A DNA stretch of 64,000 nucleotides from an uncultured Chloroflexota bacterium (GTDB lineage Bacteria; Chloroflexota; Dehalococcoidia; Lucifugimonadales; GCA-002694895), in assembly GCA_913045935.1 (NCBI GenBank), contig CAJWSY010000002.1, forward strand, positions 19,181 to 83,180. Direction: 5' to 3'. Positions 11,356 to 51,163 of the stretch are shown here, piece by piece (the first letter of the stretch is position 1; every line of letters starts with the position of its first letter). The position numbers were made by a program, and so were the translations under genes. Below the pieces are notes generated by a model. That model did not search any database. It had not been told where the DNA came from and saw nothing but the letters and a program-made list of their open reading frames with translations.

Positions 11356-11360
11356 GATTG

Positions 11361-14806: not shown

Positions 14807-14876
14807 TGTTAATACTCCTAATAATTTCATGGTATATTTTAGTTGAAATAGTTTTATAACACATATTAGGTCAACG

Positions 14877-16818: not shown

Positions 16819-17817
16819 ATGCCAGATTTACATGATGAAGAATTACATCCGAGTTATATAGGAGTTCCAACATATCTTGGATCACCATTTGCAGTTAATG
16901 CTGAAGAATTGAAATCAATGAATCCCGATATTGCTATTTTAGGAGCTCCAGTCGACATGGGTGTTGGAAATAGACCAGGAGCTAGGTTTGGTCCAAGAGC
17001 TATTAGGCAAGCTGATTATTGGCCTAAACCTGGAAAAGCTGCAAATTTATATCATTTAAATCTTGAAGTAGCTCCTTTGGCCGAATTAAATGTTGTAGAT
17101 TTTGGTGATGTAAATTGTCCTCCTATGTCTTTGGAAAAATCGCACGAAGCCGTTGAATTGAAAGTTACTGAAGCATTAGATGCAAACGCGATACCAATTG
17201 TTTTAGGAGGAGATCATTCTATAACTTGGCCAAGTGCAACAGCTGTTGCAAAAAAACATGGTTATGGAAATGTAGGTATGGTCCATTTTGATGCGCATGC
17301 CGACACAAGAGATTCTTCTTATGGCGATGTATTAATTGGACATGGAAGTCCCATGAGAAGATTAATAGAAAGCGGTGCAATTCCAGGTAAAAATTTTATA
17401 CAAATTGGATTGAGAGGTCCATGGCCAGGTCCAGATGACTTGAAATGGATGAAAAATCAAGGTATGAGATGGCATCTGATGGCAGAGATCGAAGAAAAGG
17501 GATTTGATGCTGTTTTAGATATGGCAATAAATGAAGCTTTAGACGGACCTGACAAGCTTTATATTTCAGTAGACGTTGATGTAATGGATCCAGCTTATGC
17601 TCCGGCAACAGGTACCCCTGAACCTGGTGGTATATCTTCTTTGGAATTATTGCGTGCTATAAGAAATATTGTTTTAAGCAAAGGAATGGTAGGTATGGAT
17701 GTAGTTGAAGTTTCTCCTGTTTACGATCAGCCAGGAGATATTACAGCGCAAGCTGCTCATAGATGTGTTTACGAGGCAATAAGTGCATTAGCAAAAAATA
17801 AAAGTTTGGGAAAATGA
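16819..17817 (+). CDS. speB: Agmatinase / ureohydrolase family
   Basis: RPGARFGP, GGDHSIT, FDAHAD, SVDVDVMDP, TGTPEPGG; exact substrate uncertain. Confidence 0.88.
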   Translation: MPDLHDEELHPSYIGVPTYLGSPFAVNAEELKSMNPDIAILGAPVDMGVGNRPGARFGPRAIRQADYWPKPGKAANLYHLNLEVAPLAELNVVDFGDVNCPPMSLEKSHEAVELKVTEALDANAIPIVLGGDHSITWPSATAVAKKHGYGNVGMVHFDAHADTRDSSYGDVLIGHGSPMRRLIESGAIPGKNFIQIGLRGPWPGPDDLKWMKNQGMRWHLMAEIEEKGFDAVLDMAINEALDGPDKLYISVDVDVMDPAYAPATGTPEPGGISSLELLRAIRNIVLSKGMVGMDVVEVSPVYDQPGDITAQAAHRCVYEAISALAKNKSLGK

Positions 17818-20252: not shown

Positions 20253-21320
20253 ATGAGAGCTCGAGAATTAATTAATTTTGATGGAATTACTGGTAATTAC
20301 AATTCTATAACCGATGTTGATAATGTTGAAGTCGGACATTCAACTATTATTTCTGGCGATGGTAATCTTATAGTAGGTAAAGGCCCAGTTCGAACAGGTG
20401 TTACTGTTATTTTTCCTAGAGGTAAAATAGAATCTCACATCCCAGTATTTGCAGCTTATGATGTTTTAAATGGAAACGGAGAAATGACAGGTACAATATG
20501 GGTAGAAGAATCAGGATTTTTAGAAACACCAATAGCTATTACTAATACCCACAGTGTGGGAATTGTTAGAGATTCTCTAATTAAATGGATTACATCAAAT
20601 TCGAAAGGTAAAGACCCCAAATTTAGTTTACCTCTAATTGCAGAAACTTATGATGGAGTACTTAATGACATAAATGGGCATCATGTTAATGAAAATCATG
20701 TTAATGAAGCTATTATTAACTCTAACAAATTTCCAATTCTTGAAGGAAATGTTGGTGGTGGAACCGGTATGATATGTCATCAATTCAAAGGAGGTATTGG
20801 AACTTCTTCTAGGATTATAACAATCAAAGAAAATTCTTATGTTGTTGGGACTCTAGTCCAAGCTAATTACGGAAAACGAGAGCAATTAACTATTAATGGT
20901 ATAAACGTAGGAAAACAATTAACAGATGACCTTCCGGAAATTAATGATGATTATCATCCTGGTGACGGATCAATAATAGTTATAGTAGCAACAAATGCTC
21001 CGCTTCTACCAACCCAATTAAAACGATTAGCAAAACGATCAAGTTTGGGAATATCAAAAACTGGAGGCATAGGTGCTAATGGTTCTGGTGATATATTTCT
21101 AGCCTTTTCAACTGCTAATAAAAGCGCATTTAACAGAGATGAAATTTCTAACATACAAATGATAAGCAATGATATGATTGACCCTTTATTATCTGCTGTC
21201 GTAGAAAGTACTGAAGAATCAATACTAAACGCAATGTTTTCTGCAAAAACTATGAAAGGAATAAACAATAATATAGTACATGAATTACCTGTTGATAAAC
21301 TTAAAAAAATTATTAATTAA
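20253..21320 (+). CDS. P1/S58 family peptidase (DmpA L-aminopeptidase/D-esterase)
   Basis: NSITDV, RTGVT, NGNGEMTG, GGGTGM, DG|SII autocleavage site, ATNAPL, GSGDIF. Confidence 0.93.
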   Translation: MRARELINFDGITGNYNSITDVDNVEVGHSTIISGDGNLIVGKGPVRTGVTVIFPRGKIESHIPVFAAYDVLNGNGEMTGTIWVEESGFLETPIAITNTHSVGIVRDSLIKWITSNSKGKDPKFSLPLIAETYDGVLNDINGHHVNENHVNEAIINSNKFPILEGNVGGGTGMICHQFKGGIGTSSRIITIKENSYVVGTLVQANYGKREQLTINGINVGKQLTDDLPEINDDYHPGDGSIIVIVATNAPLLPTQLKRLAKRSSLGISKTGGIGANGSGDIFLAFSTANKSAFNRDEISNIQMISNDMIDPLLSAVVESTEESILNAMFSAKTMKGINNNIVHELPVDKLKKIIN

Positions 21321-21757: not shown

Positions 21758-22126
21758 TTAAAATATTTTACTTGTTATAAAGCCTAAATATGCAAACATC
21801 AAACAAAATGTAATACTCAATACTATATTTAACATTCCTCTTATAATATTTCCATCTTGAAACAATATTAATGTTGTATAACTAAATGTAGAAAAAGTAG
21901 TAAATGAACCAAGTAATCCAATTGGGATTAATAATCTTAATTCTTCTGACATTACGTTTTTATCATTAAGGTATCCATAAAACAAAGCTATTAGAAACGA
22001 ACCTATCATGTTTACTAGCAATGTACCAAACATTTCGTGATAATATTTACTCATCAATAACCCTGAAAAATATCTAAGATTGGCTCCCAGAAACCCCCCT
22101 AACCCTATGATTAATATATTTGTCAT
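21758..22126 (-). CDS. crcB: Fluoride efflux channel Fluc
   Basis: GGFLGANLRY, GTLLVNMIGSF, GLLGSFTTFSTF. Confidence 0.95.
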   Translation of the reverse strand: MTNILIIGLGGFLGANLRYFSGLLMSKYYHEMFGTLLVNMIGSFLIALFYGYLNDKNVMSEELRLLIPIGLLGSFTTFSTFSYTTLILFQDGNIIRGMLNIVLSITFCLMFAYLGFITSKIF

Positions 22127-28485: not shown

Positions 28486-29901
28486 ATGCATGAGTTAATA
28501 AAGAAATCAGCAACAGAAATAAGAAATATGTTGTTAAATAAAGAAATCAAACCATCAGAGCTTGTTCAAATAAGCTTAGATAGAATTAATGAGGTAGATC
28601 CTGTAATTAATGCTATGCCCACAATCTGTGCCGAAAGAGCCATGGAACATGCAAAAAAAATTGAAAACGATAATAACGCAAATCAAAACTCTTTTAATAA
28701 TCTTGCTGGGATACCAATTTCGATTAAAGATCTGGTACCAGTTCAAGGAGTGAAAACTACTTGGGGATCACCATTATTTAAGGATCATATTCCTGAAAAA
28801 TCTGATTTTCTTGTTGAAAGATTAGAACAAAATGGTGGAATTGTAATGGGGAAATCTAATACCCCTGAATTCGGCGCTGGTGCAAATACATTCAATGAAG
28901 TTTTTGGTCCATCACTAAGTCCTTGGAATACAAAGAAAACTGTAGGCGGGTCTTCCGGTGGAGCTGCTTCGTCATTATTAAGTGGAGAAGTATGGCTAGC
29001 TTCAGGTAGTGATACAGGTGGAAGTCTAAGAATACCTGGTAGCTTTTGTTCAGTTGTAGGATTTCGCCCATCTCCTGGGACAGTACCTACAGGACCAGGT
29101 AATTCTCCGTTTGATTCATTGTCAGTATCGGGACCAATGGCTAGAAACGTTGAAGATACTGCTTTAATGCTTAATGCTATGACTGGATATTATGAATTTG
29201 ATCCTTATAGTAAAAAAGATACACCAAATTATTTAGATGCAGTGAGCAATCCCAAAATTCCAAAAAAAATTGCTTATTCTTTTGATTTAGGAGGAGAGCC
29301 ATTAGACCCGAGAGTTAGAAAAGGGTTTGAAGATGGTTTAAAAGTATTTGAATCAATGGGAGTAGAATTGATCGAGGATTGTATAGATTTTAGCGAAGCT
29401 CATTATTTGATTCGAATCCTAAGATCTCTTAAATTCGCAGCACAAGCTGATAGGTTGAAAAATCATAGAGATCAACTAAAACCAGAAATAATTTGGAATA
29501 TTGAAACTGGTCTTAAATTAACTGGTGAAGAAATTGCTAAAGCTGAATTAATTAGAGGAAAACTTTTTAACGATACAGCAGAATTTTTTAACAAGTATGA
29601 TATGTTTATCTGTCCAACAGTAATGGTTCCGCCTTTTGATGTGGAAATTAGATACTTAGATGAAGTTGAAGGAGTTAAGTTTGATGATTATATTACATGG
29701 CTTTACTATACTCATTCTATAACTTTAACTTCTACTCCAAGTGTATCTTTGCCATGTAGTTTTACTGATGATGGATTACCTATAGGTATTCAGTTAGTTA
29801 CAGAGTGTAACAATGAATTTGATTTGTTATCTTATAGCCAATCTTTTGAGAATTACAATTCATATGTTTTAGAAACACCAATAGATCCTATAATTAATTA
29901 A
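28486..29901 (+). CDS. Amidase signature family enzyme
   Basis: IKDL, GKSNTPEF, GGSSGG, GSDTGGSLRIP. Confidence 0.93.
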   Translation: MHELIKKSATEIRNMLLNKEIKPSELVQISLDRINEVDPVINAMPTICAERAMEHAKKIENDNNANQNSFNNLAGIPISIKDLVPVQGVKTTWGSPLFKDHIPEKSDFLVERLEQNGGIVMGKSNTPEFGAGANTFNEVFGPSLSPWNTKKTVGGSSGGAASSLLSGEVWLASGSDTGGSLRIPGSFCSVVGFRPSPGTVPTGPGNSPFDSLSVSGPMARNVEDTALMLNAMTGYYEFDPYSKKDTPNYLDAVSNPKIPKKIAYSFDLGGEPLDPRVRKGFEDGLKVFESMGVELIEDCIDFSEAHYLIRILRSLKFAAQADRLKNHRDQLKPEIIWNIETGLKLTGEEIAKAELIRGKLFNDTAEFFNKYDMFICPTVMVPPFDVEIRYLDEVEGVKFDDYITWLYYTHSITLTSTPSVSLPCSFTDDGLPIGIQLVTECNNEFDLLSYSQSFENYNSYVLETPIDPIIN

Positions 29902-36119: not shown

Positions 36120-36734
36120 ATGAATACAAACAATTCTCGAAATATAGCATTTGTAATTATTAGTACTTATTTATCATTACAAATTTTCTCTGATATAGGT
36201 TCTCTAAAAATATTAAAAATATTTACTTTTAGTGTGGATGGAGGTACTTTTTTATATCCATTTACATTTACCCTTAGAGATTTAATCCATCGACTTACAA
36301 ATAAAAAAATTTCTCAGTTAATTATTATACAATCAGTGATACTGAACTTTTTTATGGCATTTTTCTTTTTTATTATAGGAATTTTACCTTCTGATTTAGA
36401 AGTTGGCCCTCAAAACGAATTTTCAAATGTACTAAGTCCTATTTGGCGTTTAGTGATAGCATCTGCGGTTGCTGAATTAGTTGCCGAATTGTTGGATACT
36501 GAAATTTACTCATTTTGGGTGAAAAAATTTAAACAAAGATTAATTTGGGGTAGGGTTTTTTTTAGTAATTCTATTGCTTTAGTAGTTGATAGTATACTTT
36601 TTTGTTTGATAGCTTTTTATGGAGATTTGCCAAATAATATTTTGATTTCTGTTATTTTTAGTAATATTTTAATAAAAGAAATTATTACTTTAGTATCAAT
36701 TCCATCAATTTATTTGATTAAAATAGGAAAGTAA
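36120..36734 (+). CDS. VUT family (queuosine precursor) transporter
   Basis: GGTFLYPFTFTLRDLI, R...AS..A..V.EL.D, R...SN....VDS. Confidence 0.85.
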   Translation: MNTNNSRNIAFVIISTYLSLQIFSDIGSLKILKIFTFSVDGGTFLYPFTFTLRDLIHRLTNKKISQLIIIQSVILNFFMAFFFFIIGILPSDLEVGPQNEFSNVLSPIWRLVIASAVAELVAELLDTEIYSFWVKKFKQRLIWGRVFFSNSIALVVDSILFCLIAFYGDLPNNILISVIFSNILIKEIITLVSIPSIYLIKIGK

Positions 36735-38456: not shown

Positions 38457-39872
38457 ATGACAAATAAGAATCAAATGGATAAAAAATCTATAAGAGGATG
38501 GTACATTTATGATTGGGCTCATTCTGCACATTCTACAAGTGTAATGGTTGCTATTGCTCCAGTTTACTTTGTTAATTTATATAAAGATGTTTTTGGTTCT
38601 GACGGATATACGATGTACGGATTTGATTTTACTGGAACTAATGTATGGAGTATTGGGATATCGTTATCTATTTTAATAATTGCATTTTTAAATCCTATAC
38701 TTGCTGTTATCGCTGATAAAACACCAACCAAAATGACTTTTTTGAAAATATTTACTTTATTCGGATGTATCCCCACTTTTCTAATGTTTTTCACCCCTTA
38801 TGTTGGCACAGGTTGGTTATTTTTACTCCTAATGATTGTAATTTCTGTAATGGGCTTTTCAGGAGCTTGGACATTTGCAAATAGTTTTTTACCACATTTG
38901 GCACCAAAGAAATACTTGGATGAGGTTAGTAGTAAAGGATTTGCTTACGGTTACTTAGGTGGAGGATTATTACTTGTAGTTCATCTTGCAATTATTACAA
39001 TTACAGATTCATCAGAGTTATTTATTCAATTATCTCTAGCTTCTGTAGCCATATGGTGGGGTGGTTTTTCTTTAATAACTTTTTCAACACTAAAAGAACC
39101 TTATATTGATCCAAAAGAAAAGATATCAATTAACTCAAAAGTTATATCAATAGCTTTTAAACAATTAAAAACTACTTTATCTAATGTTGGAGAGTATAAA
39201 ACATTATTTATATATTTAATTGTTTATTTATTATTTAATGATGGAATTCAAACCGTTCTTAGTATTGCAGGAGCTTACGGGGCAGATACATTAGGAGTTG
39301 ATTTAATATTTAATATGGCAACAATAGTTATAGTTCAATTTATTGCAGCTCCCGGATCAATGTTATTTAATACTTTTGCAAAAATTTATTCAGCTAAAAA
39401 ATCTTTAATGATTTCATTAATAGGTTGGATAATTATTATATTCTTAGCTATGGGCTTTGCTCCTTTAGAAGAAACTGGAGAATATGCAATAAAAGACGGA
39501 TTGTTTTCTTGGTGGCCAAAATTGATAAGATCACACATATGGGAACCTTTGGGACTTAGTGTTAACTTTCAATGGTTAATTTTAGGTACTTTCGTTGGTA
39601 TAGTAATGGGCGGAAGCCAAGCAATCGCAAGAAGTATTTTTGCAGTTATGACTCCAATAAAACAAAGTGCTGAATTTTTTTCTTTTCTTGGCTTTATGTC
39701 AAGAGGAGCATCTATTTTCGGACCCCTATTATATGCTTTAGTTGCCGGTTATTTAGGGACTAGAACAGCAATATTTAGTGTTTCAATGTTTTTAATTGCA
39801 GGGACAATAGGGCTACAGTTACTTGTAGATGTAGAAAAAGGTAAAAAAGAAGCTTTAAAATCTAATAAATAG
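38457..39872 (+). CDS. MFS transporter, ATG22/YxiO-like
   Basis: W..YDWA, VSSKGFAYGYLGG, FNDGIQT, GGSQAIARS, AEFF. Confidence 0.88.
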   Translation: MTNKNQMDKKSIRGWYIYDWAHSAHSTSVMVAIAPVYFVNLYKDVFGSDGYTMYGFDFTGTNVWSIGISLSILIIAFLNPILAVIADKTPTKMTFLKIFTLFGCIPTFLMFFTPYVGTGWLFLLLMIVISVMGFSGAWTFANSFLPHLAPKKYLDEVSSKGFAYGYLGGGLLLVVHLAIITITDSSELFIQLSLASVAIWWGGFSLITFSTLKEPYIDPKEKISINSKVISIAFKQLKTTLSNVGEYKTLFIYLIVYLLFNDGIQTVLSIAGAYGADTLGVDLIFNMATIVIVQFIAAPGSMLFNTFAKIYSAKKSLMISLIGWIIIIFLAMGFAPLEETGEYAIKDGLFSWWPKLIRSHIWEPLGLSVNFQWLILGTFVGIVMGGSQAIARSIFAVMTPIKQSAEFFSFLGFMSRGASIFGPLLYALVAGYLGTRTAIFSVSMFLIAGTIGLQLLVDVEKGKKEALKSNK

Positions 39873-39912
39873 AAACATTAAATTACAAAGTAAATCAGAG
39901 TAAAAATTCATT

Positions 39913-41154
39913 TTATTTATCTTTATTTATGTCAATATGTTCGATTATTTTTTCAGGCCAATCAGAAGTGACTGCAGAGACTCCTATTTTTCTTAACATT
40001 ACTACATCTTCAGGATTTTCTATTCCCCACACTCCTACAAACAATCCTTTTTCTTTTGCGTATTTAACAGAATGTTCTGATGTTAATTTTGCATACGGGA
40101 AAATCCCCTGAATTCCTAACTTGCTTGCAATGTCAATGTCCGTGTCAGTTAATTCTCCAACTAACCATCCGTGTCTTACAACGGGCAGTAGCTCTAAAGA
40201 TCTTAAAACTTGTTCTAAATGAAATGAAATAATGGTAAGTCCAGGTATTTGAGACATAGGATTGCCAGCAATTTTATCCCAATTTTCATTTTCAATTAAA
40301 GCTGCCACCTGCTTTGTCAAATTTGATTGGTCGGATTTTAATTCTAGTACTAGATGAATTTGTTCATTGTATTTTTTTAAAAATTCAGACAATGTAGGTA
40401 TTTGTTCATTTTTAAATTTTTTATCAAACCAACTCCCGAAGTCTAAAGATTTAATATCACTTAACTTTAAATCCTTAACGTTACCCTTGCCGTTAGAAGT
40501 TCGATCTACAGTATCATCATGTATAATCACAGGAATATCATCCGATGTTAACTGCACATCAGTTTCAATGTATTTAAAATTGTTGCTTATTGCCAAATCA
40601 AAAGCTGCAAATGTGTTTTCCGGTGCTTGTGACGAATGCCCTCTATGAGCAATAGAACCAAATTCATTTGTTGAATCGGGATTGTCTTTTGTCTTTTGTA
40701 TATTATTTGTAAACCCATTAAATCTAGACTCAACTTCTTTTATAAAATCTGATTTAACTGGAACATAATTCAGAGGGACAATATTGTATTCAATAGTATC
40801 AAGTAATAATGTTGAATAACCTAAAGTTTTGCCAAAAGTACCAACTTTAGATTCGACTTGATTGATTTTAGTTAAAGGAATCTCATATTTTTGTGATCCA
40901 AGTAAAGAACCCTGTACAATCTCAATTTGATTTAATGTTATTGTATATTTTGTTCTATATGTCGAAATAATTCTTGGAACCACAACAATTAATGCAAATA
41001 TTATAAGAGGACTTTCCAATATTGCCACATCTCCACTTATGAGAGGATATACGATAATAACTACTATCCACGGAACAAGAAACCATAACCATCCCCAATA
41101 CGACGGTTTTACCGAAAAATTACTATTATTATTTTTTATGTTATCTGTTTCCAT
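39913..41154 (-). CDS. Fusion: TM + bacterial PH (bPH_2) domain + glycerophosphodiester phosphodiesterase
   Basis: N-terminal 2 TM segments with Y.IT...I...G.L....IPL.KI..V; C-terminal AHRG..APENT..AF, ETDVQLT.D, HD.TVDRT, SD.P. Confidence 0.85.
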   Translation of the reverse strand: METDNIKNNNSNFSVKPSYWGWLWFLVPWIVVIIVYPLISGDVAILESPLIIFALIVVVPRIISTYRTKYTITLNQIEIVQGSLLGSQKYEIPLTKINQVESKVGTFGKTLGYSTLLLDTIEYNIVPLNYVPVKSDFIKEVESRFNGFTNNIQKTKDNPDSTNEFGSIAHRGHSSQAPENTFAAFDLAISNNFKYIETDVQLTSDDIPVIIHDDTVDRTSNGKGNVKDLKLSDIKSLDFGSWFDKKFKNEQIPTLSEFLKKYNEQIHLVLELKSDQSNLTKQVAALIENENWDKIAGNPMSQIPGLTIISFHLEQVLRSLELLPVVRHGWLVGELTDTDIDIASKLGIQGIFPYAKLTSEHSVKYAKEKGLFVGVWGIENPEDVVMLRKIGVSAVTSDWPEKIIEHIDINKDK

Positions 41155-41155
41155 G

Positions 41156-42187
41156 TTATTTATTTTTATTTTTAATTAAATCTTTGGCGTAAGTAAACAA
41201 ATTAGGAGTACCACCGCTATGAATAAATATTATATTATCTTTGGGAGAAAATTTGTTGTTATTTACATGTTCTATAAGACCACTCATAGATTTAGCAGTA
41301 TATACAGGATCTAAAAAGATAGATTCTGTTTTTGCTAATAATTCAATTGCTTGAATACTTGATTTTGTTGAGATTCCGTAGTCTTTACCAACGAAATTAT
41401 AATCATAATTTATATCCGAAGAATCTAGCTTTAGATTTAAATTAAGCAACTTGGCAACATTGTTCCCATTTTTTATCCCTTCTTTTTGCATATCTTTTTT
41501 TGAATTATACAGGTAAGGAGAAATAGCGTTTATTTCCCAATCTAAGTCACAATGTTTTTTGAATATTGATAAACCTATAACCGAATTCCCGGCAACTTGA
41601 TATATTTTAATATTTTGTAAATTTAATTTGTTTATTTGGTGTAATAATTCTAGTGCTCCAGAAATATATCCTATGATTGATGAATGTTTTATAAATTCTT
41701 GCTTGGGTCTAATGTATGGTTTATGTCCTTTTAGTATTAATTTCTTACCTAATTCAATACAATAATTTTCAATTTCCTCTTCGCTATTTGAATCTATTTC
41801 ATGGATTTCGACATTCATAAGTTTTTGTAATAAATAATTTCCTTGATTATCATTTTTATGACTAGAGCTCATAACATTAATATATTTTATTCCTGCTTTT
41901 ATGCATGCAGCTGCGTTAATGCGAGAATTATTTGAAATTTTCTGATCACTATTGATAAAAATGTCATATTTATTTTTTAATATATCTCCAATTCTGAATT
42001 CTAGGTGTCTAACTTTGTTTCCGCCGTAAGCCAATCCTGTTAAATCGTCTCTTTTAATATAAATATTTTGTACTTTTAAAGCTTTTTCTAGGTTGGGACA
42101 TTTTTGTAAAGGGGTAGGGAAGTATCCTAAATTAAATTTTGGTAATTTATTTATTTCTCGTTCTAAATACCTAAGTTTAGCGTTCAT
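41156..42187 (-). CDS. PLP enzyme of the D-cysteine desulfhydrase/ACC deaminase/L-cysteate sulfo-lyase family (divergent)
   Basis: PTPL, KRDDLTG.A.GGNKVR, QGN, G.DYG, LDPVYT.K, HSGG.P. Confidence 0.85.
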   Translation of the reverse strand: MNAKLRYLEREINKLPKFNLGYFPTPLQKCPNLEKALKVQNIYIKRDDLTGLAYGGNKVRHLEFRIGDILKNKYDIFINSDQKISNNSRINAAACIKAGIKYINVMSSSHKNDNQGNYLLQKLMNVEIHEIDSNSEEEIENYCIELGKKLILKGHKPYIRPKQEFIKHSSIIGYISGALELLHQINKLNLQNIKIYQVAGNSVIGLSIFKKHCDLDWEINAISPYLYNSKKDMQKEGIKNGNNVAKLLNLNLKLDSSDINYDYNFVGKDYGISTKSSIQAIELLAKTESIFLDPVYTAKSMSGLIEHVNNNKFSPKDNIIFIHSGGTPNLFTYAKDLIKNKNK

Positions 42188-43324
42188 TTATTTCGCCCAC
42201 CAAATATTTGGTTTTTTTCTCTTACCAAAATATCTATCTAAAAAAATCAATATTTTTCTCAACGGTGTATTTGATATACGAAACCCAATTTTATGAATTA
42301 ATTTATTGAAATCTTTATTGTAAGGACAAACCCTTATGCAAATAGTACAGTCACTACTTTGCGATGCCCAAAATTTAAAACATTTTTCTGCATTAACCGA
42401 CCATTTTTTTATTCCAGTGATATTAGACATATTAATTTGTTTAAAAGAAGGTTCAGAACTAGATATCGCCCTAGGAGGACATTCATTAGCACATCTTTGA
42501 CAAATTGAACAATAATTTTTAACACCAAACGATATTGGTTTATCATGCTCTAAAGGTAAATCAGTAAAAATTTTAGATATTCTTACACGGGGTCCAAATT
42601 TTTTTGTTATCAATAATCCATTTCTAGCATATTCACCCAAACCTGCTTCGATAGCTAGAGGTATTGATAAAGCAGTATCATTTTGACTTGCAACTGCTTT
42701 GTATCCTAAATTTATGATGTATTGCGCTAAAGATAATGCTGATGATAAATCATTAGAATATCCTAATCCTGTAGCTGCTCCACTTAATGCAGAGGGTGCA
42801 GTATCAATTAAGTCTTTATCCATTTCATTGGCAATAACAATTACATTTTTTAATTCCGGATCTAGTTCGTTTTTTAATTCAATGTTCTTATCTCTATTAT
42901 ATTTATGAGAATAAACCCAATCTTTATTGAATTTAGTTACTCCAACTAAATCAGCTCCTAATTTTTTTGCGACAATTTTTATTTCTTTGGTTAGTTGAGT
43001 TGTAGATTTAATTTTGTATTTTTTAAATGTTCCTTTTTTTTGCACAGAAAAATAATCTGTAAAACCTTCTGCTCTTCCATTGTTTTTATCAGAATTTGAA
43101 AAAAAATCAGACATAAACCAACCAGAATTTCTAAAAGCGTAATCCTTATGACTGAAACCCTCGGGTCTTTTTTTATCTTCTGGTGGTTTTACATAATCTT
43201 GATAAAATTTTGTAGTTTTATCACTTTTAATAGAGTTATCCCAAAGAGAACGATTAAAAATATCATTCTTTTGATTAAATCTTTTAAATTTGGTTTTATC
43301 AATTATTTGATCTTGTTTTTTCAT
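42188..43324 (-). CDS. Reductive dehalogenase-like cobamide/2x[4Fe-4S] protein without TAT signal (start reassigned to 43324)
   Basis: RFNQKND, K..AK.LGADLVG....WVYS, GY, PLAIEAGLGEY.RNG.LIT..FGPRVR, TDLPL..DKPI.FG, CxxCxxCxxxCP and C-x10-CxxCxxxCP. Confidence 0.88.
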   Translation of the reverse strand: MKKQDQIIDKTKFKRFNQKNDIFNRSLWDNSIKSDKTTKFYQDYVKPPEDKKRPEGFSHKDYAFRNSGWFMSDFFSNSDKNNGRAEGFTDYFSVQKKGTFKKYKIKSTTQLTKEIKIVAKKLGADLVGVTKFNKDWVYSHKYNRDKNIELKNELDPELKNVIVIANEMDKDLIDTAPSALSGAATGLGYSNDLSSALSLAQYIINLGYKAVASQNDTALSIPLAIEAGLGEYARNGLLITKKFGPRVRISKIFTDLPLEHDKPISFGVKNYCSICQRCANECPPRAISSSEPSFKQINMSNITGIKKWSVNAEKCFKFWASQSSDCTICIRVCPYNKDFNKLIHKIGFRISNTPLRKILIFLDRYFGKRKKPNIWWAK

Positions 43325-43326
43325 AT

Positions 43327-44397
43327 TCACATAAATAGAGTAATACATAGTAAACTTGATAGCCCTACTATTGTTGCTACTAATATTCCTACCAAAAATG
43401 GTTTTAAACCTAGATTTTTTAATGAATTTAAATCAGTAGTCATACCTACTGATCCCATAGCAATAATCAGTAAAAATTTTGATATTGAAGTTAGCTGATC
43501 TGTTATCCATTTCCAATTTTCTTCATTTATAAAAGATGTTGAATCAAATGACAAGTCCCCTAATGTTCTTATAATGCTCATTAAGAAAAATCCTAAAATA
43601 AACATAGGGACTAATTTTGATAAATCTTTTAAATTAATTAATTGATCATTTTTTGATGATGATTGTTTGTATAAAATTGTCATTAGAGGAATAACAAAAA
43701 CCATGCTAAGGTTTCTTACTAATTTTACGGTAATAGCATTTTTACCTACATTTTCAGTACCAAATGTCTCATCGTAAATGAACCCTGCTCCTGTGACTTG
43801 TGCAGTTTCATGAATAGAAGTACCTAGGAATAAGCCTGCATTTTTTTCTGTAAACTCAAGAATATTGGCTAGGAAGGGATAAAAAATCATGGCAATAAGA
43901 CCAAATATTGTTATAACTGTTATTGCATAAGCTATCTCTTCTTTTTTTGCATTTATGCCTGGAGCAGTTGCAACGATAGCAGAAGCGCCACAAATACTAG
44001 TCCCTACAGCTATTAAGACACCTAGTTTTGAAGGTAATCTTAATAATTTTGTAAGAAAGTAACCTGTTAATAATCCGGAAATAATACAAAATAATATTAT
44101 TGGCAATCCTGTAATACCCAATGAAAATATCTCTGAAATACTTAACCTAATTCCTAATATAACAATACCAATTCGAAGTACTTTTTTTACATTAAAATCA
44201 AGTCCGTCATTAAAAATATTTTTCACACCAAAAAATGTTTTTATTAATATTCCTAAGATTATTGCCAATAAAATTGAACTTATTAATGATTTATAACCAA
44301 TCAAATTATTAAAGAATTTTGCAGAATAAAATGAAATTAGAGCAACTAAAATCCCTAATAATAATCCTGGAATTAATTTTTTTATATTTTGATTCAT
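43327..44397 (-). CDS. YeiH/PSE family putative sulfate/sulfite exporter
   Basis: LRIGIVILG.RL, GTSICGASAI.A, GTSIHETAQV, VKLVRN. Confidence 0.9.
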   Translation of the reverse strand: MNQNIKKLIPGLLLGILVALISFYSAKFFNNLIGYKSLISSILLAIILGILIKTFFGVKNIFNDGLDFNVKKVLRIGIVILGIRLSISEIFSLGITGLPIILFCIISGLLTGYFLTKLLRLPSKLGVLIAVGTSICGASAIVATAPGINAKKEEIAYAITVITIFGLIAMIFYPFLANILEFTEKNAGLFLGTSIHETAQVTGAGFIYDETFGTENVGKNAITVKLVRNLSMVFVIPLMTILYKQSSSKNDQLINLKDLSKLVPMFILGFFLMSIIRTLGDLSFDSTSFINEENWKWITDQLTSISKFLLIIAMGSVGMTTDLNSLKNLGLKPFLVGILVATIVGLSSLLCITLFM

Positions 44398-44403
44398 AAT
44401 GTT

Positions 44404-45432
44404 TTAACTGTGAAGAAAATTTATTATATCGCCGTCATTAACTACGTATTCTTTTCCATTACCTTTTACTTTACCTTCTTTTTTGCATTCATTCCATGAC
44501 CCTAATTTTAGAAATGTATCAAATTCTATTACTTCAGCTCTTATAAATCCATTAGAAATATCAGAATGTATTTTGGATGCTGAAATCAAAGCCGTATCAC
44601 CTTTTTCAATCTCCCAAGCTCTAATTTCCTGATCTCCTGCAGTGATAAATATAATTTTACCCATACCCTCAAATAAAGCTTTTATTAAGTTATATTTTAA
44701 ATTTGCATCTATATTTAAACTTTCTCTAAATTCATTAGATTCAATTTCAGTTAATTCAGATAATTCCATCTCTAATTTAGATGGGTACAAAAAATTACTG
44801 CTATAATCTGTCAAATTCTCATTGCTTTCATTTTCTATTAATTCAGTATCTGAATTTAGAAGGACAAAGATTGGTTTTAAAGTTATTAAATTATAACCAG
44901 TTAATTTTTTCAGTTCTCCTTCTTTAAATATATATGAATTAAGAGCACTTCCATTTTCCAGGTGATTTTTCAGACTGTTTAACAATTCGATCTCAGTGTT
45001 TACAACTTCGATTTCTTGTTTAGTTTTACCCTTTGATGATTTTAATCTTCGTTCAATGATGTTTTCTATAATAATTGTATCTGAAACAATTAATTCAGTT
45101 ATAATTTGATTTATATCAGAAGTAATTATTGAATAGTTCTCAATTTCAAAACATTTGATCACTAATAAAATACCGTAAGATTTTTGTAAAGAATCTATTC
45201 CTTTTAGTTCTGTATTTTTAGAATTAAGTGTTAATATATCTAATTCTGTAAATGAAATTTCAGGATAAGTTAGTTTATCATGTCCAAGAAGTTTTCCAAC
45301 TTGTTTAAGTCTATTATCTTCTACTTTTATATTACAGTATTCAGGCAAAGTGTCATTATCAGATAAACTAAGTAGTGATTTTAAAAAAGTAGATTTGCCT
45401 GATTGAGGCAATCCTAAAACAGCTATATTCAT
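44404..45432 (-). CDS. YchF-like (DUF933) P-loop protein with degenerate G2/G3 motifs
   Basis: GLPQSGKST, LITLKP, TAG..E.RAW, IHSD...GFIRAEV, GKEYVV.DGDIINF. Confidence 0.82.
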   Translation of the reverse strand: MNIAVLGLPQSGKSTFLKSLLSLSDNDTLPEYCNIKVEDNRLKQVGKLLGHDKLTYPEISFTELDILTLNSKNTELKGIDSLQKSYGILLVIKCFEIENYSIITSDINQIITELIVSDTIIIENIIERRLKSSKGKTKQEIEVVNTEIELLNSLKNHLENGSALNSYIFKEGELKKLTGYNLITLKPIFVLLNSDTELIENESNENLTDYSSNFLYPSKLEMELSELTEIESNEFRESLNIDANLKYNLIKALFEGMGKIIFITAGDQEIRAWEIEKGDTALISASKIHSDISNGFIRAEVIEFDTFLKLGSWNECKKEGKVKGNGKEYVVNDGDIINFLHS

Positions 45433-45436
45433 TAAT

Positions 45437-46615
45437 TTATTTTTTAAGCACTTTAGCTATATTTTCACCAACTACTTTGTCTTCACCAGGATTTAATGCC
45501 CAAGGTACAAGTTTGATTGTGTTTTCCTCATGATTTTGTCCATTTCTAGTCCATATTGGAGTGTCTAGATCTTTTAGTTTTTCCACTAATTCTTCAGCAG
45601 AGATTCCTACTGTGTTTTCATCAATTTCTAATTTAACACCAAACGGTTGATTCCCGATGATATTATCTATGATTTCTGCGTTTACACCAGGAATGTTTTT
45701 TAAAGGTTCAAGCATAACCCTAGACTGCTCTTCAGCTATTGCTAATCTTTCTTCATGATTCATTGTTACCCATTCATGAACTGCAACTGTTACACCTATA
45801 ATTTCTTGTCTGTCCACTTTCATAGGTCTGCCAATTCCTCTTATTCTTCGACCTTCATATCCGGTGAATGATTGATTAGCAATTTTTTCAATCATCTCTG
45901 TTGTTCCTAGAGCTAATCCAACTGATTGTGATGCTCCCATATATTTTGCAGCAATTACTTGCGCATCTGCTCCCATTCGAACATATTTACCTAATATGTC
46001 TAGCGGATAAATTTGAGCAGCTGCATCAACTAAAACATAAATGTTATTCTTTTTTGCAATCTCTATAACTTTTTCTAAGCTCAAAGGGTTAGTTTGTATA
46101 TTATTTCCAACTACAGTTCCCGGAGACAGTTCATTAGCAACCCATAATACTCCTGCAGTATTTTCATTTATTGCACTTTCAAAATCAGATTCGCTTGCTG
46201 ATAATTCTTCTCCAAATTCAACAAGTTTTGCCCCTGAGACTTCCACACATCTGTCATACCAATATCTTTGACATTTTTGGATTAATATTTCGCCTTTCAT
46301 TCCAGAAGTGTCGGGTAGTTGTTGAATTAGATTGTCATCGTTTCCGGCCATAAAAGCTGCTCCAGTTAAAGCTAACCCAGCACCAGCTCCAGATGTTACA
46401 AAACCAGCTGGAACATTACAATATTCTGCAATTTTCTTGCCTACAACTTCTTGTAGATGTGGTAAATTTACATAAGCAGAATCTGCGCGATCCATAGCCT
46501 CTTTAACTATTGGTTTTGGAGTAGACCCTCCCAATAGCGTTACGCTACCAATTGCATTAATTATAGGTTTTGCTCCCATTTCTTTGTATATCTCACCAAA
46601 AATATCGCTTGCCAT
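45437..46615 (-). CDS. SelA-like PLP enzyme (DgaE-type), not a true selenocysteine synthase
   Basis: INA.G..T.LGGS, VTSGA.AG, VDAAA, K at the PLP site, IGRPMKV. Confidence 0.85.
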   Translation of the reverse strand: MASDIFGEIYKEMGAKPIINAIGSVTLLGGSTPKPIVKEAMDRADSAYVNLPHLQEVVGKKIAEYCNVPAGFVTSGAGAGLALTGAAFMAGNDDNLIQQLPDTSGMKGEILIQKCQRYWYDRCVEVSGAKLVEFGEELSASESDFESAINENTAGVLWVANELSPGTVVGNNIQTNPLSLEKVIEIAKKNNIYVLVDAAAQIYPLDILGKYVRMGADAQVIAAKYMGASQSVGLALGTTEMIEKIANQSFTGYEGRRIRGIGRPMKVDRQEIIGVTVAVHEWVTMNHEERLAIAEEQSRVMLEPLKNIPGVNAEIIDNIIGNQPFGVKLEIDENTVGISAEELVEKLKDLDTPIWTRNGQNHEENTIKLVPWALNPGEDKVVGENIAKVLKK

Positions 46616-46729
46616 TTTTTTTCTCCAATTATTAACATCTAATTAATCTAAGTAAAAGTGTAGAAAATATTTTAACTAAAACTTAATTTGTATTTAAATA
46701 CAAATATTTAATATGTTTTAAGTTTTGAA

Positions 46730-47584
46730 TCAAATATTGATATTATTAAGTACTTCTTTAACCGATCTTGATTTATTTAAAGAGTAAAAATGTATCCCAG
46801 GGATGTCATTGTTTAACAATTCATTGATTTGCATTGTTGCAAATTCTATTCCAAACTTAGTTGTTTCTTCATCATTGTTTATTGAATTTTCGAGTTTTTT
46901 ATTTAATGAATCTGGAATAGAAGCACCACATAAATTTGTGAATTTTCTTATTTGCCTTGTACTAGTTATAGGCATTATTGCAGGGATTATTGGAATTGTA
47001 ATTCCTAATTTTATAGCTTTTTCTCTAAATGAAAAAAAATCACTATTATTGAAAAACAACTGCGTAATGAAAAAATCTGCTCCTTTGGATTGCTTTAATT
47101 TTGTAAATTTCAAATCATCATTTTTAGAAATAGATTCAGGGTGAGATTCAGGATAACAGGCAGCTGCAATGCAAAAATCATCAGAATAGTTTTTTATTAT
47201 TTCAATTAAATCAGTGGCATGATGAATTTCTTTTTTCAGATCATTACTATTATTTGGTATATCACCACGTAGAGCTATAATATTTTCTATATTAGATTTT
47301 TTATATGCACTTAACATCTCAATTATTTCACTTTTTGAATGAGTTATGCAGGTTAAATGCGACATTACTTCTGTAATTTCTGATTCTTTTGTTTTTTGAG
47401 ATATTTCTAAAGTTAATTTTCTCGTACTACCACCTGCGCCGTATGTAAAAGACACAAAATCAGGATTGAATTCAGATAAATCACTTATTGTTTTATTTAA
47501 ATTTCCTAGATTTGACTCAGTTTTTGGAGGGAAAAATTCAAAGGATAAAGTTTTTTTCTTGTTTATTATATTTATAATTTTCAT
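46730..47584 (-). CDS. metF: Methylenetetrahydrofolate reductase
   Basis: SFEFFPPK, TYGAGGS, HLTC, ALRGD, YPE.HP, ITQLFF, HFYSLN. Confidence 0.96.
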   Translation of the reverse strand: MKIINIINKKKTLSFEFFPPKTESNLGNLNKTISDLSEFNPDFVSFTYGAGGSTRKLTLEISQKTKESEITEVMSHLTCITHSKSEIIEMLSAYKKSNIENIIALRGDIPNNSNDLKKEIHHATDLIEIIKNYSDDFCIAAACYPESHPESISKNDDLKFTKLKQSKGADFFITQLFFNNSDFFSFREKAIKLGITIPIIPAIMPITSTRQIRKFTNLCGASIPDSLNKKLENSINNDEETTKFGIEFATMQINELLNNDIPGIHFYSLNKSRSVKEVLNNINI

Positions 47585-47614
47585 TTGGTTATGGATTATT
47601 ATATATAATATTTT

Positions 47615-49096
47615 TTATATTTTAGGCTTTAAATTTTGCCATGGTTTTTCTTGCTCAATAATTCTTGATGCTTGCAAAATAGACAGTTCATCCTCTTTAT
47701 CACCTACAATTTGAAGACCAACGGGCATATTATTTTGTGTGAATCCACTTGGTATACTTGCACCAGGGTTGCCACTCCAATTAAATAATGCTGTGTATTG
47801 TTTGTAAGCTAAATTCCATGAAGAATAATCCATTTCATTACTTACAAATTTATCTTCTTTTGTCATTTTAACAATATTTAATTTATTATTTTCTATAATA
47901 TGTTTTTCATTGCATTTGTTAGCGGTAAAACCAACAGTGGGTGTAGCAATCAAGTCATATTTTTTAAATATTGATGATATATAGGATCTTAGCTCATATA
48001 GTTTTGTCAGCGCATGTATATATTGCTCGGAACTTATATTTTTGCCTCTTTCTATTGTATTTCTTACATGAGGCATTAATTTAGAAGGGTCTTTTTCAAA
48101 AAATATTTTATTGTTTGCATAGTTAAGAGCGATAGAAAGTACTGAATCTAATTCTTCGTACTCATTAAGATCAATTTTAAAATCTAAATCTTCAATTATA
48201 GCGCCATTATTTTCGAGTAATTTTAATGCTTTAGCGTTGATATCAATCACCTCTTGATCAGCTATTCTAGTATTTAGATTTTGTGACCACCCAATTTTTT
48301 TTCCTTTTACTCCATTATCAATATGTTTCAAATAATCAGGTGATGGTTTTTCAATAGTGTTTGGCTCTGCTTCTATATGAGTCCCTGACATTACTTGAAG
48401 TAAAAGGGCACTATCTTTAACAAACCAACTCATAGGACCTACGCAAGAATAATTCACAGGATGCCAACTCATTTTCCCTGAATGCCTCCTAGGAACTCTT
48501 CCTTGTGTGCCTTTTATTCCATATATACCTGAAAAAGATGACGGAATTCTAATTGAGCCTCCACCATCTGATCCTTGTCCAAAAGGGTGGACTCCCGAAG
48601 CAACTGCAGCTGCTGTACCTCCACTTGACCCCCCGGATGTATGATTTAAATTCCAAGGATTTCTACAATCATCACCTAACTTGTTTTCAGTTCCCCCACT
48701 TGCTCCAAATTCAGGAACATTAGTTTTTCCAAGAATAACTCCGTCTTCTTTTTTAATTCTTTCTACATGTAACTGATCAGTTTTAGATATATCGTTTTCT
48801 AAGAATAATGAACCTTTGGTAGTTCTATAGCCTTTTACAGCTTCTAAATCTTTAATTGAAGTAGGAACACCACCTAATAATCCGACGGGTTCTTTATTTT
48901 GAATTTTTTTATCTACAAGTTTAGCTGATTCTAAAGCCAAATTTTCTGTGACAGTTATGAAAGCATTGGTTTTGTGATTTGTTTCTTCAATTCTTTCTAA
49001 TGCTAATTTTGTTAATTCTACAGCAGATAATTCTTTTTTACTTATTAATGATTTCAGTTCTATTGCTGATTTATATAACAACTCAAATTTTTTCAT
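47615..49096 (-). CDS. Amidase signature family enzyme
   Basis: IKDL, GKTNVPEF, GGSSGG, GSDGGGSIRIP. Confidence 0.93.
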   Translation of the reverse strand: MKKFELLYKSAIELKSLISKKELSAVELTKLALERIEETNHKTNAFITVTENLALESAKLVDKKIQNKEPVGLLGGVPTSIKDLEAVKGYRTTKGSLFLENDISKTDQLHVERIKKEDGVILGKTNVPEFGASGGTENKLGDDCRNPWNLNHTSGGSSGGTAAAVASGVHPFGQGSDGGGSIRIPSSFSGIYGIKGTQGRVPRRHSGKMSWHPVNYSCVGPMSWFVKDSALLLQVMSGTHIEAEPNTIEKPSPDYLKHIDNGVKGKKIGWSQNLNTRIADQEVIDINAKALKLLENNGAIIEDLDFKIDLNEYEELDSVLSIALNYANNKIFFEKDPSKLMPHVRNTIERGKNISSEQYIHALTKLYELRSYISSIFKKYDLIATPTVGFTANKCNEKHIIENNKLNIVKMTKEDKFVSNEMDYSSWNLAYKQYTALFNWSGNPGASIPSGFTQNNMPVGLQIVGDKEDELSILQASRIIEQEKPWQNLKPKI

Positions 49097-49103
49097 ATTT
49101 TAA

Positions 49104-49568
49104 TTATACACTTCCTTCAAAATTTAATTGCTTCCAAGATTCGTAAACTATTATTGATACAGCATTTGACAAGTTCAAACTTCTGTTATTTGGAACCATG
49201 GGTAATTTGAAAATATTTTCTTTTGGTATTGAATTTAAAATTTCTTTGTCTAAACCAACTGATTCACTTCCAAATAATATAGCATCATTTTTTTTGAAAT
49301 TAATCTTTGTATATAATTTTTCACCTTTTGCCGTAGTTCCTAATATTCGGTTAGGTTTTATGATTTTAATAAAATCATAAAATGAATTATGAATATTTAA
49401 GTTGGCAAGATCATGATAATCTAATCCGGCTCTGATTAAATTGCTGTTAGACAAATCAAAACCTAATGGTTTTATTAAATGTAAATAATAACCTGAATTT
49501 GCACATAATCTAATTATGTTCCCTGTATTTGGAGGTATTTCAGGTTTGATTAAAACGATATTGATCAT
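49104..49568 (-). CDS. trmL: tRNA (cytidine/uridine-34-2'-O)-methyltransferase (start reassigned to 49568)
   Basis: PEIPPNTGNIIRLC, RAGLDY, FGSES.GL, RSLNLSN. Confidence 0.95.
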   Translation of the reverse strand: MINIVLIKPEIPPNTGNIIRLCANSGYYLHLIKPLGFDLSNSNLIRAGLDYHDLANLNIHNSFYDFIKIIKPNRILGTTAKGEKLYTKINFKKNDAILFGSESVGLDKEILNSIPKENIFKLPMVPNNRSLNLSNAVSIIVYESWKQLNFEGSV

Positions 49569-49687
49569 AGAATCACTTTTATAAAAGTAACTATAAATAA
49601 AAAAAATGTTATTATTGAGGATATACAACCATAAGGTTTGAACATTTTTATTTTCTCCTATAACATGAATTCAATTGAGGTGTAATT

Positions 49688-51163
49688 ATGAATAAAAAAT
49701 ACTTGTTAAAAAATGCTACGATATACGACGGTACTGGGTCAAATCCTTTTAATGGGAATGTTTTGATTGAAAACGGCAAAATTATTGAAGTTGGTGAAAT
49801 TGAGAATGTTGATGCTGAAATTATAGATATAAAAGGCAAAGCTTTAGCTCCGGGATTTATTGATATGCATTCTCATGATGATATTGCAATGTTTGTTTAT
49901 CCGGATATGGATTTCAAATTAATGCAAGGAGTGACAACTAATGTTAATGGTAATTGCGGATCGGGGACTATTCCTTATTCATCTGCAGATATAGTAAAAT
50001 GGTATCCTCAAATGGAAGGAATTCCTGAATGGGAGACTTATGGCGAATATTTAGAATTAGTAAACCAATCTAAAACAAGTATTCATTCAGCATTTTTGGT
50101 TGGACATGGTCCTATAAGAAAAGCAACAGTTGGCAACGAACAACGAATGCCTACAGATAAAGAATTTGATTTAATGAAAGCTTGGATTAAAGAAGGCATG
50201 GAAGAAGGTGCTGTTGGCTTGTCAACAGGACTGATTTATGAACCTGGAAGATACTCTAACACGGAAGAACTTATTGAGTTAAGTAAAACAATTTCACCTT
50301 ATGATGGTGTTTATTTTAGTCATATGAGAAATGAAGCAGGACATTTAATAGAATCAGTTAATGAGACTATAAAAATTGGAGAAGAAGCTGGTTGTTCTGT
50401 TGAAATATCTCATCACAAAGTTTCAGGAGAAGAAAATTGGGGTAAATCTGTTCAATCTCTTGAAGCAATAGAAGATGCTCAAAATAGGGGATTAAATGTT
50501 CACTCTGATCAATACCCTTACAATGCGGGGAGTACTTCTCTTTTTGCTATTGTCCAAAATAATGCTTTTACCACAGGAGATGGCGGAATGGGATCTGCAA
50601 CAGGAGACAAAGTGTTAATTTCAAGCTCTAGTAAAGACCCTTCTATAGAAGGCAAGACTTTAGGTGACTTATGCGATGAATACGATCTACCTGAACAAGA
50701 AGCTGCTCAAAAATTACTATCTAATGACCCTGATATTTTTATTGTAATTGAAGGAATGGTAGAAGATGATATAGCAAGAATATTAGCACATCCTACAACT
50801 ATGATTGGTTCAGATGGAGTTCCCTTACCTGGAAAGCCTCATCCAAGGTTATACGGATGTTTTCCAAGAGTCCTTGGTAAATATTCCAGAGAAGATGGAG
50901 TGATAAGTATGCAAGATGCGATACATAAAATGACAGGATTGTCAGCAATTAAATCAAATCTTAATGATAGGGGTTTTATTAAAAAAGGATTAAATGCTGA
51001 CATTGTTATATTTGATGAAGGAACAATTATTGATAAAGCAACTTATGATAACCCGCGAGTTTACCCTGATGGAATTATACATGTTTTTATTGATGGAGAA
51101 TTTGCGGTCAAGAATGGAGAACAAACAGATTTAAGAGCAGGTAAAGTTGCAAAAAGATCTTAA
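49688..51163 (+). CDS. N-acyl-D-amino acid deacylase
   Basis: PGFIDMHSH, GNCG, GLSTGLIY.PG, HMRNE, DQYPY, GSDG, HPRLYG.FPR. Confidence 0.92.
   Translation: MNKKYLLKNATIYDGTGSNPFNGNVLIENGKIIEVGEIENVDAEIIDIKGKALAPGFIDMHSHDDIAMFVYPDMDFKLMQGVTTNVNGNCGSGTIPYSSADIVKWYPQMEGIPEWETYGEYLELVNQSKTSIHSAFLVGHGPIRKATVGNEQRMPTDKEFDLMKAWIKEGMEEGAVGLSTGLIYEPGRYSNTEELIELSKTISPYDGVYFSHMRNEAGHLIESVNETIKIGEEAGCSVEISHHKVSGEENWGKSVQSLEAIEDAQNRGLNVHSDQYPYNAGSTSLFAIVQNNAFTTGDGGMGSATGDKVLISSSSKDPSIEGKTLGDLCDEYDLPEQEAAQKLLSNDPDIFIVIEGMVEDDIARILAHPTTMIGSDGVPLPGKPHPRLYGCFPRVLGKYSREDGVISMQDAIHKMTGLSAIKSNLNDRGFIKKGLNADIVIFDEGTIIDKATYDNPRVYPDGIIHVFIDGEFAVKNGEQTDLRAGKVAKRS

Follow-up and report, generated by a model that had tools for sequence, protein, structure and literature searches.

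Reductive dehalogenases (RdhA) of the PceA type, such as PceA of Sulfurospirillum multivorans (4uqu) and the enzyme of the Desulfitobacterium RDH complex (8q4h), carry a twin-arginine leader and are accompanied by an RdhB anchor gene. The catabolic, self-sufficient enzymes NpRdhA and BhbA (4ras, 6zy1) are cytoplasmic and non-respiratory proteins of ∼700 amino acids (aa) that possess a second, vestigial domain for cobalamin binding and, in the case of BhbA, also a reductase module (PMC12219181). The same paper (Microbiome 2025) describes, from cold-seep metagenomes, a ‘simplified cytosolic' type that averages ∼395 aa, has neither the twin-arginine leader, nor RdhB, nor the vestigial second cobalamin domain, nor the reductase domain, and comes mainly from Chloroflexota and Desulfobacterota bins; as far as the paper's description of this type goes, none of its members has been tested biochemically, and our literature search found no report of a biochemical test on such leaderless enzymes. 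Here we analyze a gene for a leaderless, stand-alone RdhA in a 64,000-nucleotide (nt) stretch of DNA (hereinafter, the window) from an uncultured Chloroflexota bacterium (class Dehalococcoidia, genus GCA-002694895; contig CAJWSY010000002.1, positions 19,181 to 83,180), where this gene is wedged between the genes for a YeiH-family transporter and a pyridoxal phosphate (PLP)-dependent enzyme.

The two outer genes of this trio recall a described pair. In Ruegeria pomeroyi, the D-cysteate sulfo-lyase CuyA is paired with the putative sulfite exporter CuyZ, and on the megaplasmid of this bacterium, cuyR, cuyA and a gene annotated as ‘putative sulfate exporter family transporter' are adjacent; the same cuyA-exporter pair is present in Phaeobacter. 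A preliminary description of the window, made from the sequence alone, invoked the R. pomeroyi pairing, correctly, and proposed that the whole trio encodes a cobamide-dependent organosulfur pathway, which is not borne out by the analysis reported here. Instead, the genes for YeiH, RdhA and the PLP enzyme most likely have three separate functions and were pressed together by genome streamlining, a reading that we consider probable but well short of certain.

Conservation of the trio

The adjacency of the three genes appears to be a property of one genus. Loci of RdhA homologs were examined in species-representative genomes (80 of at least 538 loci; 5 from the genus and 75 from elsewhere) and in metagenomes (80 of at least 505; 4 from the genus and 76 from elsewhere, with many contigs short). 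Neither a YeiH nor a PLP enzyme homolog was detected near RdhA in any of the 75 non-genus genome loci (up to ±8 kb, tblastn, E ≤ 1e-5) or of the 76 non-genus metagenome loci (up to ±5 kb, E ≤ 1e-6), and a Pfam scan of the two nearest open reading frames (ORFs) per RdhA locus, for which the ORF calls were crude, found neither PF03601 nor the DcyD family among 145 ORFs. Searches from the side of the other two genes gave the same picture. Homologs of the PLP enzyme at E ≤ 1e-30 are encoded in 24 of the 301 Dehalococcoidia genomes, and none of the 29 loci retrieved besides that of the window has YeiH or RdhA within 1.5 kb (none of 28 when locus L130, from a genome flagged as unpublished, G300, is set aside); similarly, none of the 10 YeiH loci from other families of the order has a gene for the PLP enzyme or RdhA nearby. 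The preliminary description had itself named a survey of RdhA neighborhoods for yeiH and cuyA as a check on the proposed pathway, and the absence of the adjacency from all 151 RdhA ortholog loci outside the genus largely refutes it.

Within the genus, RdhA orthologs with 74–86% identity are encoded in 6 of the 7 congeners, all of which are metagenome-assembled genomes (MAGs) of Dehalococcoidia or SAR202-type Chloroflexota, and the top RdhA match from the 53 other families sampled in this order has 39% identity. The trio is retained in 5 congeners and on 4 metagenome contigs, and the larger array DgaE-YchF-YeiH-RdhA-PLP-GDPD-MFS is collinear in the genus wherever the contigs reach; because the flanking genes are collinear too, the retention of the trio in the congeners says nothing specific.

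Furthermore, the components of the trio can be separated by gene loss. In congener G001, a 55-aa ORF is located between an intact YeiH gene (366 aa) and the PLP enzyme gene (a 356-aa ORF), and in this small ORF, the first ∼15 residues match the N-terminus of RdhA whereas the last ∼40 match its C-terminus. Thus, the ORF fuses the two termini of RdhA, the entire catalytic domain having been deleted from within the gene without a shift of frame, and in this genome RdhA was lost independently of YeiH and the PLP enzyme gene, which is intact. On a metagenome contig from the genus (L159), it is the PLP enzyme gene that is split, next to whole RdhA and YeiH genes, into ORFs of 202 and 131 aa by a frameshift within a stretch rich in A; the gene might be a true pseudogene, or the frameshift might come from misassembly.

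Several observations weigh against mere packing. The YeiH-RdhA-PLP order is kept across species that share 60–70% identity in the PLP enzyme and 74–86% in RdhA; the orthologous group of the PLP enzyme (at least 60% identity) is found only in this genus, so that conserved linkage of this group could be seen nowhere else; and the MAGs are 65–89% complete. In addition, roseobacters provide an established case of a functional pair formed by a CuyA-family gene and the gene for a PSE-family exporter, so that YeiH and the PLP enzyme may be linked in this genus, and the RdhA clade is somewhat associated with amino acid-related genes in other phyla, so that RdhA and the PLP enzyme may be linked as well.

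Gene packing at the locus

The window has a low GC content (∼29%), and the host assembly is 1.33 Mb in size and 76% complete. The genes of the trio are co-directional and separated by 2 and 0 nt, in agreement with the earlier description and confirmed by the ORF list and the sequence at position 43324: an ATG comes 2 nt after the YeiH stop codon, and the RdhA stop codon abuts the start of the PLP enzyme gene. The longest RdhA ORF (42188..43348) encodes 386 aa from its first ATG, and given the ATG 2 nt past the YeiH stop, RdhA most likely is the 378-aa product that starts there. Under a crude ORF call for the whole assembly, the median gap between co-directional neighbors is 10 nt, 244 of the 701 co-directional pairs are separated by 2 nt or less, and in 70 of the 459 co-directional triplets both gaps are this short. 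By this measure, the tight spacing of the trio is no more than the genome-wide norm.

The trio is embedded in a co-directional run of nine genes (TrmL, amidase, MTHFR, DgaE-like lyase, YchF, YeiH, RdhA, PLP enzyme and GDPD) with gaps of 0 to 114 nt. As this run also includes TrmL, MTHFR and YchF, packing is the favored explanation, and with the YchF gene 6 nt upstream and the GDPD gene 1 nt downstream of the trio, the tight packing here evidently joins unrelated genes. The GDPD-PLP-RdhA and RdhA-YeiH joints are bridged by contigs from two marine metagenome runs (three low-depth contig joints with sides of 21–22 nt were left out as unreliable); because the best-matching metagenome might be the source sample of the window itself, these contigs give limited support against an assembly artifact. 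Among the sequencing runs listed as containing the locus, none is from RNA, and comparison with two metatranscriptome contig sets yielded one contig of 167 nt, inside the GDPD gene, and none over the trio. In the region 39800–49800, a scan found 50 promoter-like sites compared with 59.7 expected from shuffled sequences, and 3 terminator-like sites compared with 3.4.

The RdhA protein

Pfam and NCBIfam searches agree with the family assignments originally made for all three genes. The RdhA protein scores 186.1 bits against TIGR02486 (‘reductive dehalogenase'), above the cut-off of 160.35, and 55.9 bits against the QueG model TIGR00276, below the cut-off of 200. Among Protein Data Bank (PDB) chains, its best matches are of the PceA type (8q4h, E 1.4e-53; 4uqu, 9.2e-53), followed by NpRdhA (7.6e-24) and QueG (2e-9). 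Both [4Fe-4S] motifs are present (C272, C275, C278 and C282, the last followed by P283; C315, C326, C329 and C333), with matches to PF13484 and PF12838, and the eight cysteines are invariant in 24 RdhA sequences from several phyla (alignment A1). The active-site residues Tyr246, Asn272 and Arg305 of PceA fall on Y189, N215 and R248 of the window protein in a gap-free HMMER alignment with 4uqu_A, and these three residues are also invariant across alignment A1.

In a Foldseek search with the AF2 model of RdhA (pLDDT 68.1, pTM 0.74), PceA-type chains come up best (E 4e-20, TMq 0.62–0.69), followed by NpRdhA (TMq 0.53–0.57) and then QueG (TMq 0.37–0.40). As modeled, the protein has the cobamide-binding core fold, and binding of the cobamide itself is predicted. 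B12-binding domains, including a MetH-sized ORF, are encoded in three of the five genus genomes, which makes the use of cobamides by these organisms plausible.

Despite the shared core, the window protein differs from the PceA-type enzymes in the shorter N-terminal region (378 aa in total compared with 464–503 aa), with ∼25% identity over the fold, and in the lack of the leader and the anchor. The first 40 residues contain neither an RR motif nor a hydrophobic stretch, and no rdhB-like neighbor was found at the locus, where the flanking genes, at 2 and 0 nt, leave no room for a small rdhB ORF. The protein also lacks the ∼700-aa, two-domain build of NpRdhA and BhbA, sharing with them the catalytic core such that it aligns only to residues 354–614 of the 704-aa 4ras chain. 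Judging from these features, RdhA is of a non-respiratory build, so that the earlier proposal of a role other than organohalide respiration stands with regard to the missing leader and RdhB. It does not hold with regard to C-S bond cleavage: because RdhA keeps the Tyr, Asn and Arg aligned with those of PceA, nothing points to C-S chemistry. A separate candidate role, that of YeiH as an RdhB-like membrane anchor, was considered and dropped, as no other RdhA locus carries a YeiH gene.

The RdhA clade

RdhA of the window belongs to a large clade of leaderless proteins of ∼380–400 aa: 4222 homologous proteins were retrieved at E ≤ 1e-10, and these >4000 homologs come from at least eight phyla. The non-genus homologs that are listed are 51–57% identical to the window protein over 96–100% of the length and consist of 373–425 aa. 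In size and leaderless build, the window protein resembles the ‘simplified cytosolic' RdhA and fits the description of that type by length, architecture and taxa, as far as given in PMC12219181. The differences are that the window clade is unusually conserved (64% mean column identity across phyla in alignment A1) and that, besides Chloroflexota and Deinococcota, it reaches Gemmatimonadota, Acidobacteriota, Marinimicrobia, Binatia and Thioglobus. Our literature search found nothing on the YeiH-RdhA-PLP trio or on RdhA in low-GC SAR202-type genomes.

The immediate neighbors of the clade RdhA genes are heterogeneous. In a quick tree, the phyla are mixed, with 15 label changes compared with the minimum of 8, and the branch of the genus is long and compositionally atypical, for which reason we claim neither a donor nor a sister group.

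The PLP enzyme, YeiH and the CuyA-CuyZ pair

The PLP enzyme belongs to the PF00291 family (97.7 bits, cut-off 35). Its best NCBIfam models are CuyA (NF052482, 219.6 bits) and XcbE (201.7 bits), neither of which reaches the cut-off of 450; against the D-cysteine desulfhydrase family TIGR01275, it scores 194.5 bits, again below the cut-off (289.4), and the best PDB match is the D-cysteine desulfhydrase 7ysk (E 2.9e-46). The protein keeps the Schiff-base lysine in GGNK, the SN pair and the tyrosine in DPVYT, which align with the corresponding motifs of StDcyD and SpCuyA (29% identity with the latter); in StDcyD, the serine, asparagine and alpha-deprotonating tyrosine are Ser78, Asn79 and Tyr287 (PMC11193023). 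The Gly-rich phosphate-binding loop is two residues shorter than in CuyA and DcyD, and the PxGGS motif is absent. On the strength of these comparisons, the PLP enzyme is placed within the D-cysteine desulfhydrase/CuyA family but is divergent. As a separate observation, in P0136, a homolog that is 49% identical to the PLP enzyme, GGNKVR is replaced by GGDGVR, so that there is no Schiff-base lysine and the protein may be catalytically dead.

YeiH matches PF03601 over its whole length (253.6 bits, residues 10–336) and scores below the cut-off against TIGR00698, ‘YeiH family putative sulfate export transporter' (155.4 compared with 232.6 bits). Each of the five genus genomes searched contains one PF03601 match.

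Given these affinities, the main alternative is that YeiH and the PLP enzyme form a cuyZ/cuyA-like pair, in which the lyase would release sulfite or sulfide from a D-amino acid (D-cysteate, D-cysteine) and YeiH would export it, with RdhA an unrelated passenger. The window YeiH is indeed homologous to the R. pomeroyi exporter that adjoins cuyA (27% identity, E 1e-29), the roseobacter cuyA genes adjoin PSE-family exporters, CuyA is the best NCBIfam model for the PLP enzyme, and the PLP lysine and the alpha-deprotonating tyrosine of CuyA are kept. Moreover, a Salmonella yeiH deletion mutant is reported to be sulfite-sensitive (bioRxiv 10.1101/2025.07.27.662810), and in G001, the YeiH and PLP enzyme genes remain adjacent and intact after the deletion within RdhA. 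Nevertheless, we regard such a pair as unlikely. The score of the PLP enzyme is less than half of the CuyA cut-off and its phosphate-binding loop is altered; compared with cuyA-cuyZ, the gene order is reversed, with RdhA in between, and no LysR regulator is present; and the pairing recurs in none of the 29 other Dehalococcoidia loci of the PLP enzyme and none of the 10 other YeiH loci. In addition, the 1.3-Mb genome encodes three paralogs of the DcyD/CuyA family, none of which except the window gene is near an exporter, and one of these, on contig C9 between holA and the gene for a CehA-type hydrolase, scores 406.8 bits with the CuyA model and, by this comparison, is a better CuyA candidate than the window gene.

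Tryptophan-linked contexts of RdhA and the remaining alternatives

A different lead comes from the neighborhoods of clade RdhA genes in other phyla. Tryptophan-linked genes, namely those for IDO, TDO, TrpB-like PLP enzymes and a PF04199 cyclase, are located within 1.7 kb of RdhA in 6 of the 75 non-genus genome loci (Table 1), whereas in the outer zone of the genome loci, 2.5–8 kb away, no tryptophan-linked match was found. Kynurenine formamidase is a member of the PF04199 family. Three of the 76 metagenome loci (L166, L174 and L176) add one IDO homolog and two cyclase homologs; taken together, the RdhA orthologs at these genome and metagenome loci are from Marinimicrobia, Chloroflexota, Binatia and Gemmatimonadota. 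In 4 genome and 7 metagenome loci of a Gemmatimonadota lineage, the gene directly after RdhA, co-directional with it and either overlapping or no more than ∼50 nt away, encodes an amino acid permease of ∼750 aa, and genes for M20 deacylases and class-III aminotransferases recur near clade RdhA genes. These contexts suggest the speculative and, in our estimate, quite doubtful possibility that the leaderless RdhA clade is a dedicated cytoplasmic dehalogenase for halogenated tryptophan or indole-type marine metabolites, the product of which would be passed to tryptophan dioxygenases, to TrpB-like indole-salvage enzymes or, in the genus, to a PLP lyase of the D-amino acid type. Amino acid-related genes are common and the 6 of 75 loci were counted without a random-locus control, so that the link to tryptophan is best taken as a hypothesis; furthermore, the six loci are not independent, being distributed among three subclades of the quick tree with four of the six in one. 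No paper connecting reductive dehalogenases to halotryptophans came up in our literature search.

Applied to the window, this lead would make RdhA and the PLP enzyme partners that act on a halogenated amino acid: RdhA would dehalogenate it reductively, the PLP enzyme would then degrade its skeleton, and YeiH would be either a bystander or the exporter of the anion. A halogenated amino acid was among the substrates originally suggested, and the contexts in other phyla offer no more than a weak, independent hint in its favor. The PLP enzyme of the window is not TrpB-like, G001 has lost RdhA while keeping an intact PLP enzyme gene, and on the L159 contig the opposite combination is seen, with the PLP enzyme gene split and RdhA intact, all of which makes this partnership improbable.

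Still less probable, to the point of being very hard to reconcile with the data, is the single organosulfur pathway, in which the RdhA-fold enzyme would cleave a C-S bond or dehalogenate a sulfonate, the PLP enzyme would complete the degradation and YeiH would export sulfite. The short gaps, the resemblance of the outer genes to the cuyZ and cuyA families and the retention of the trio in five congeners and on four metagenome contigs are the points in its favor. Against it, this retention is limited to one generally collinear genus, RdhA alone was lost in G001, the RdhA orthologs from genomes without the YeiH and PLP enzyme neighbors remain 51–57% identical to the window protein with the PceA-aligned residues kept, and none of the 65 window ORFs was identified as a sulfonate or sulfite-oxidation gene.

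Finally, a role of the RdhA-like protein as a substitute epoxyqueuosine reductase is rejected as exceedingly improbable: although JGI labels several homologs ‘epoxyqueuosine reductase', and the five genus genomes searched for queuosine genes (G000, G002, G003, G006 and G007) all encode Tgt and none has QueG above the cut-off or QueH, with a queuosine-precursor transporter encoded in the window, the epoxyqueuosine-forming QueA is likewise found in none of the five, so that there would be no substrate for such an enzyme, the protein exceeds the cut-off of the RdhA model but not that of the QueG model, its fold matches QueG much less well than the PceA-type chains, and the gene is deleted in G001. 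The distribution of these genes suggests that the genus salvages a queuosine precursor at a late or final stage and bypasses the epoxyqueuosine steps.

Probable separate functions of the three genes and their surroundings

In the favored reading of three separate functions pressed together by streamlining, the analysis shows the gene identities, residue conservation, distribution and lack of conserved linkage, and cofactors, chemistry, substrates and the direction of transport are inferred. RdhA would bind a cobamide and two [4Fe-4S] clusters and, with electrons from a soluble donor, strip halide reductively from an organohalide taken up by the cell; the residues aligned with the Tyr, Arg and Asn of PceA would serve in this reaction. 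The PLP enzyme would catalyze a PLP-dependent alpha,beta-elimination on an amino acid, probably a D-amino acid, in which the leaving group is released and a keto acid and ammonium are formed, and the YeiH/PSE-family transporter would export sulfite or a similar anion.

Genes for the catabolism of D-amino acids and peptides are abundant in the window, which suits a D-amino acid lyase. This set includes an M55 D-aminopeptidase, S51 and S58 peptidases, two M20 peptidases, two amidases and arginase, as well as two genes of the D-serine dehydratase/alanine racemase fold. The window also contains a gene of the CrcB family (fluoride channel), which is unrelated to the trio.

Table 1. Coordinates of the genes of the window and of related loci. 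Plain numbers are window positions; other coordinates follow the name of the contig or locus.
Feature	Coordinates	Strand	Remarks
YeiH/PSE-family (PF03601) membrane transporter, 356 aa	43327..44397	-	Predicted sulfite/anion exporter
Leaderless stand-alone RdhA, 378 aa	42188..43324	-	TIGR02486; from ATG at 43324
Divergent D-cysteine desulfhydrase/CuyA/ACC-deaminase-family PLP enzyme (fold type II), 343 aa	41156..42187	-	PF00291
YchF-type ATPase	44404..45432	-	TIGR00092 174.9 bits (cut-off 279.2), PF06071; 6 nt upstream of YeiH
Glycerophosphodiester phosphodiesterase (GDPD), N-terminal bPH_2 domain	39913..41154	-	PF03009 144.9 bits; 1 nt downstream of PLP enzyme gene
D-amino acid/peptide catabolic genes	3593-4420, 6646-7353, 9239-11355, 13658-14887, 17814-19052, 20253-21320, 28486-29901, 47615-49096
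CrcB-family gene	21758-22126
Queuosine-precursor transporter	36120-36734
DcyD/CuyA-family paralog, contig C9	G000:C9:23449-24447
DcyD/CuyA-family paralog, contig C30	G000:C30:6262-7278
55-aa ORF in place of RdhA in G001	L027:7974-8141		Contig C17
Split PLP enzyme gene	L159:6061-7130		Genus metagenome contig
IDO	L036:6781-7923		Overlaps RdhA start by 4 nt
TDO	L046:9238-10032; also L068		Beside RdhA
Tryptophan-linked genes of L068 (TDO, TrpB-like)	L068:6493-7887 and 10768-11538
TrpB-like PLP enzymes	L068; L088:9219-10595; L103:9228-10775		>700 bits on NF009057
PF04199 cyclase	L059:9141-9710		Beside RdhA
RdhA-permease loci	Genomes L053, L092, L048, L054; metagenomes L167, L176, L187, L189, L205, L222, L235

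Implications

Had the trio constituted one pathway, it would have meant a new chemistry or substrate class for cobamide enzymes, tied to marine sulfur cycling, and the evidence does not support this. The interpretation given in the preliminary description is partly supported, in that its identification of the three genes, the analogy to cuyA/cuyZ and the non-respiratory architecture of RdhA survive. The locus also serves as a warning that, in streamlined genomes, gaps of 0–2 nt carry no information on operons. At the same time, low-GC, streamlined, open-ocean Dehalococcoidia carry a leaderless RdhA from a clade that is among the strongest in conservation and the broadest in distribution within the family, and the contexts of this clade in other phyla provide a testable lead to its substrate. 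If the proposed activity on halogenated tryptophan or indole-type metabolites were true, it would give the leaderless RdhA clade its first substrate class and define a new route of marine organohalogen cycling.

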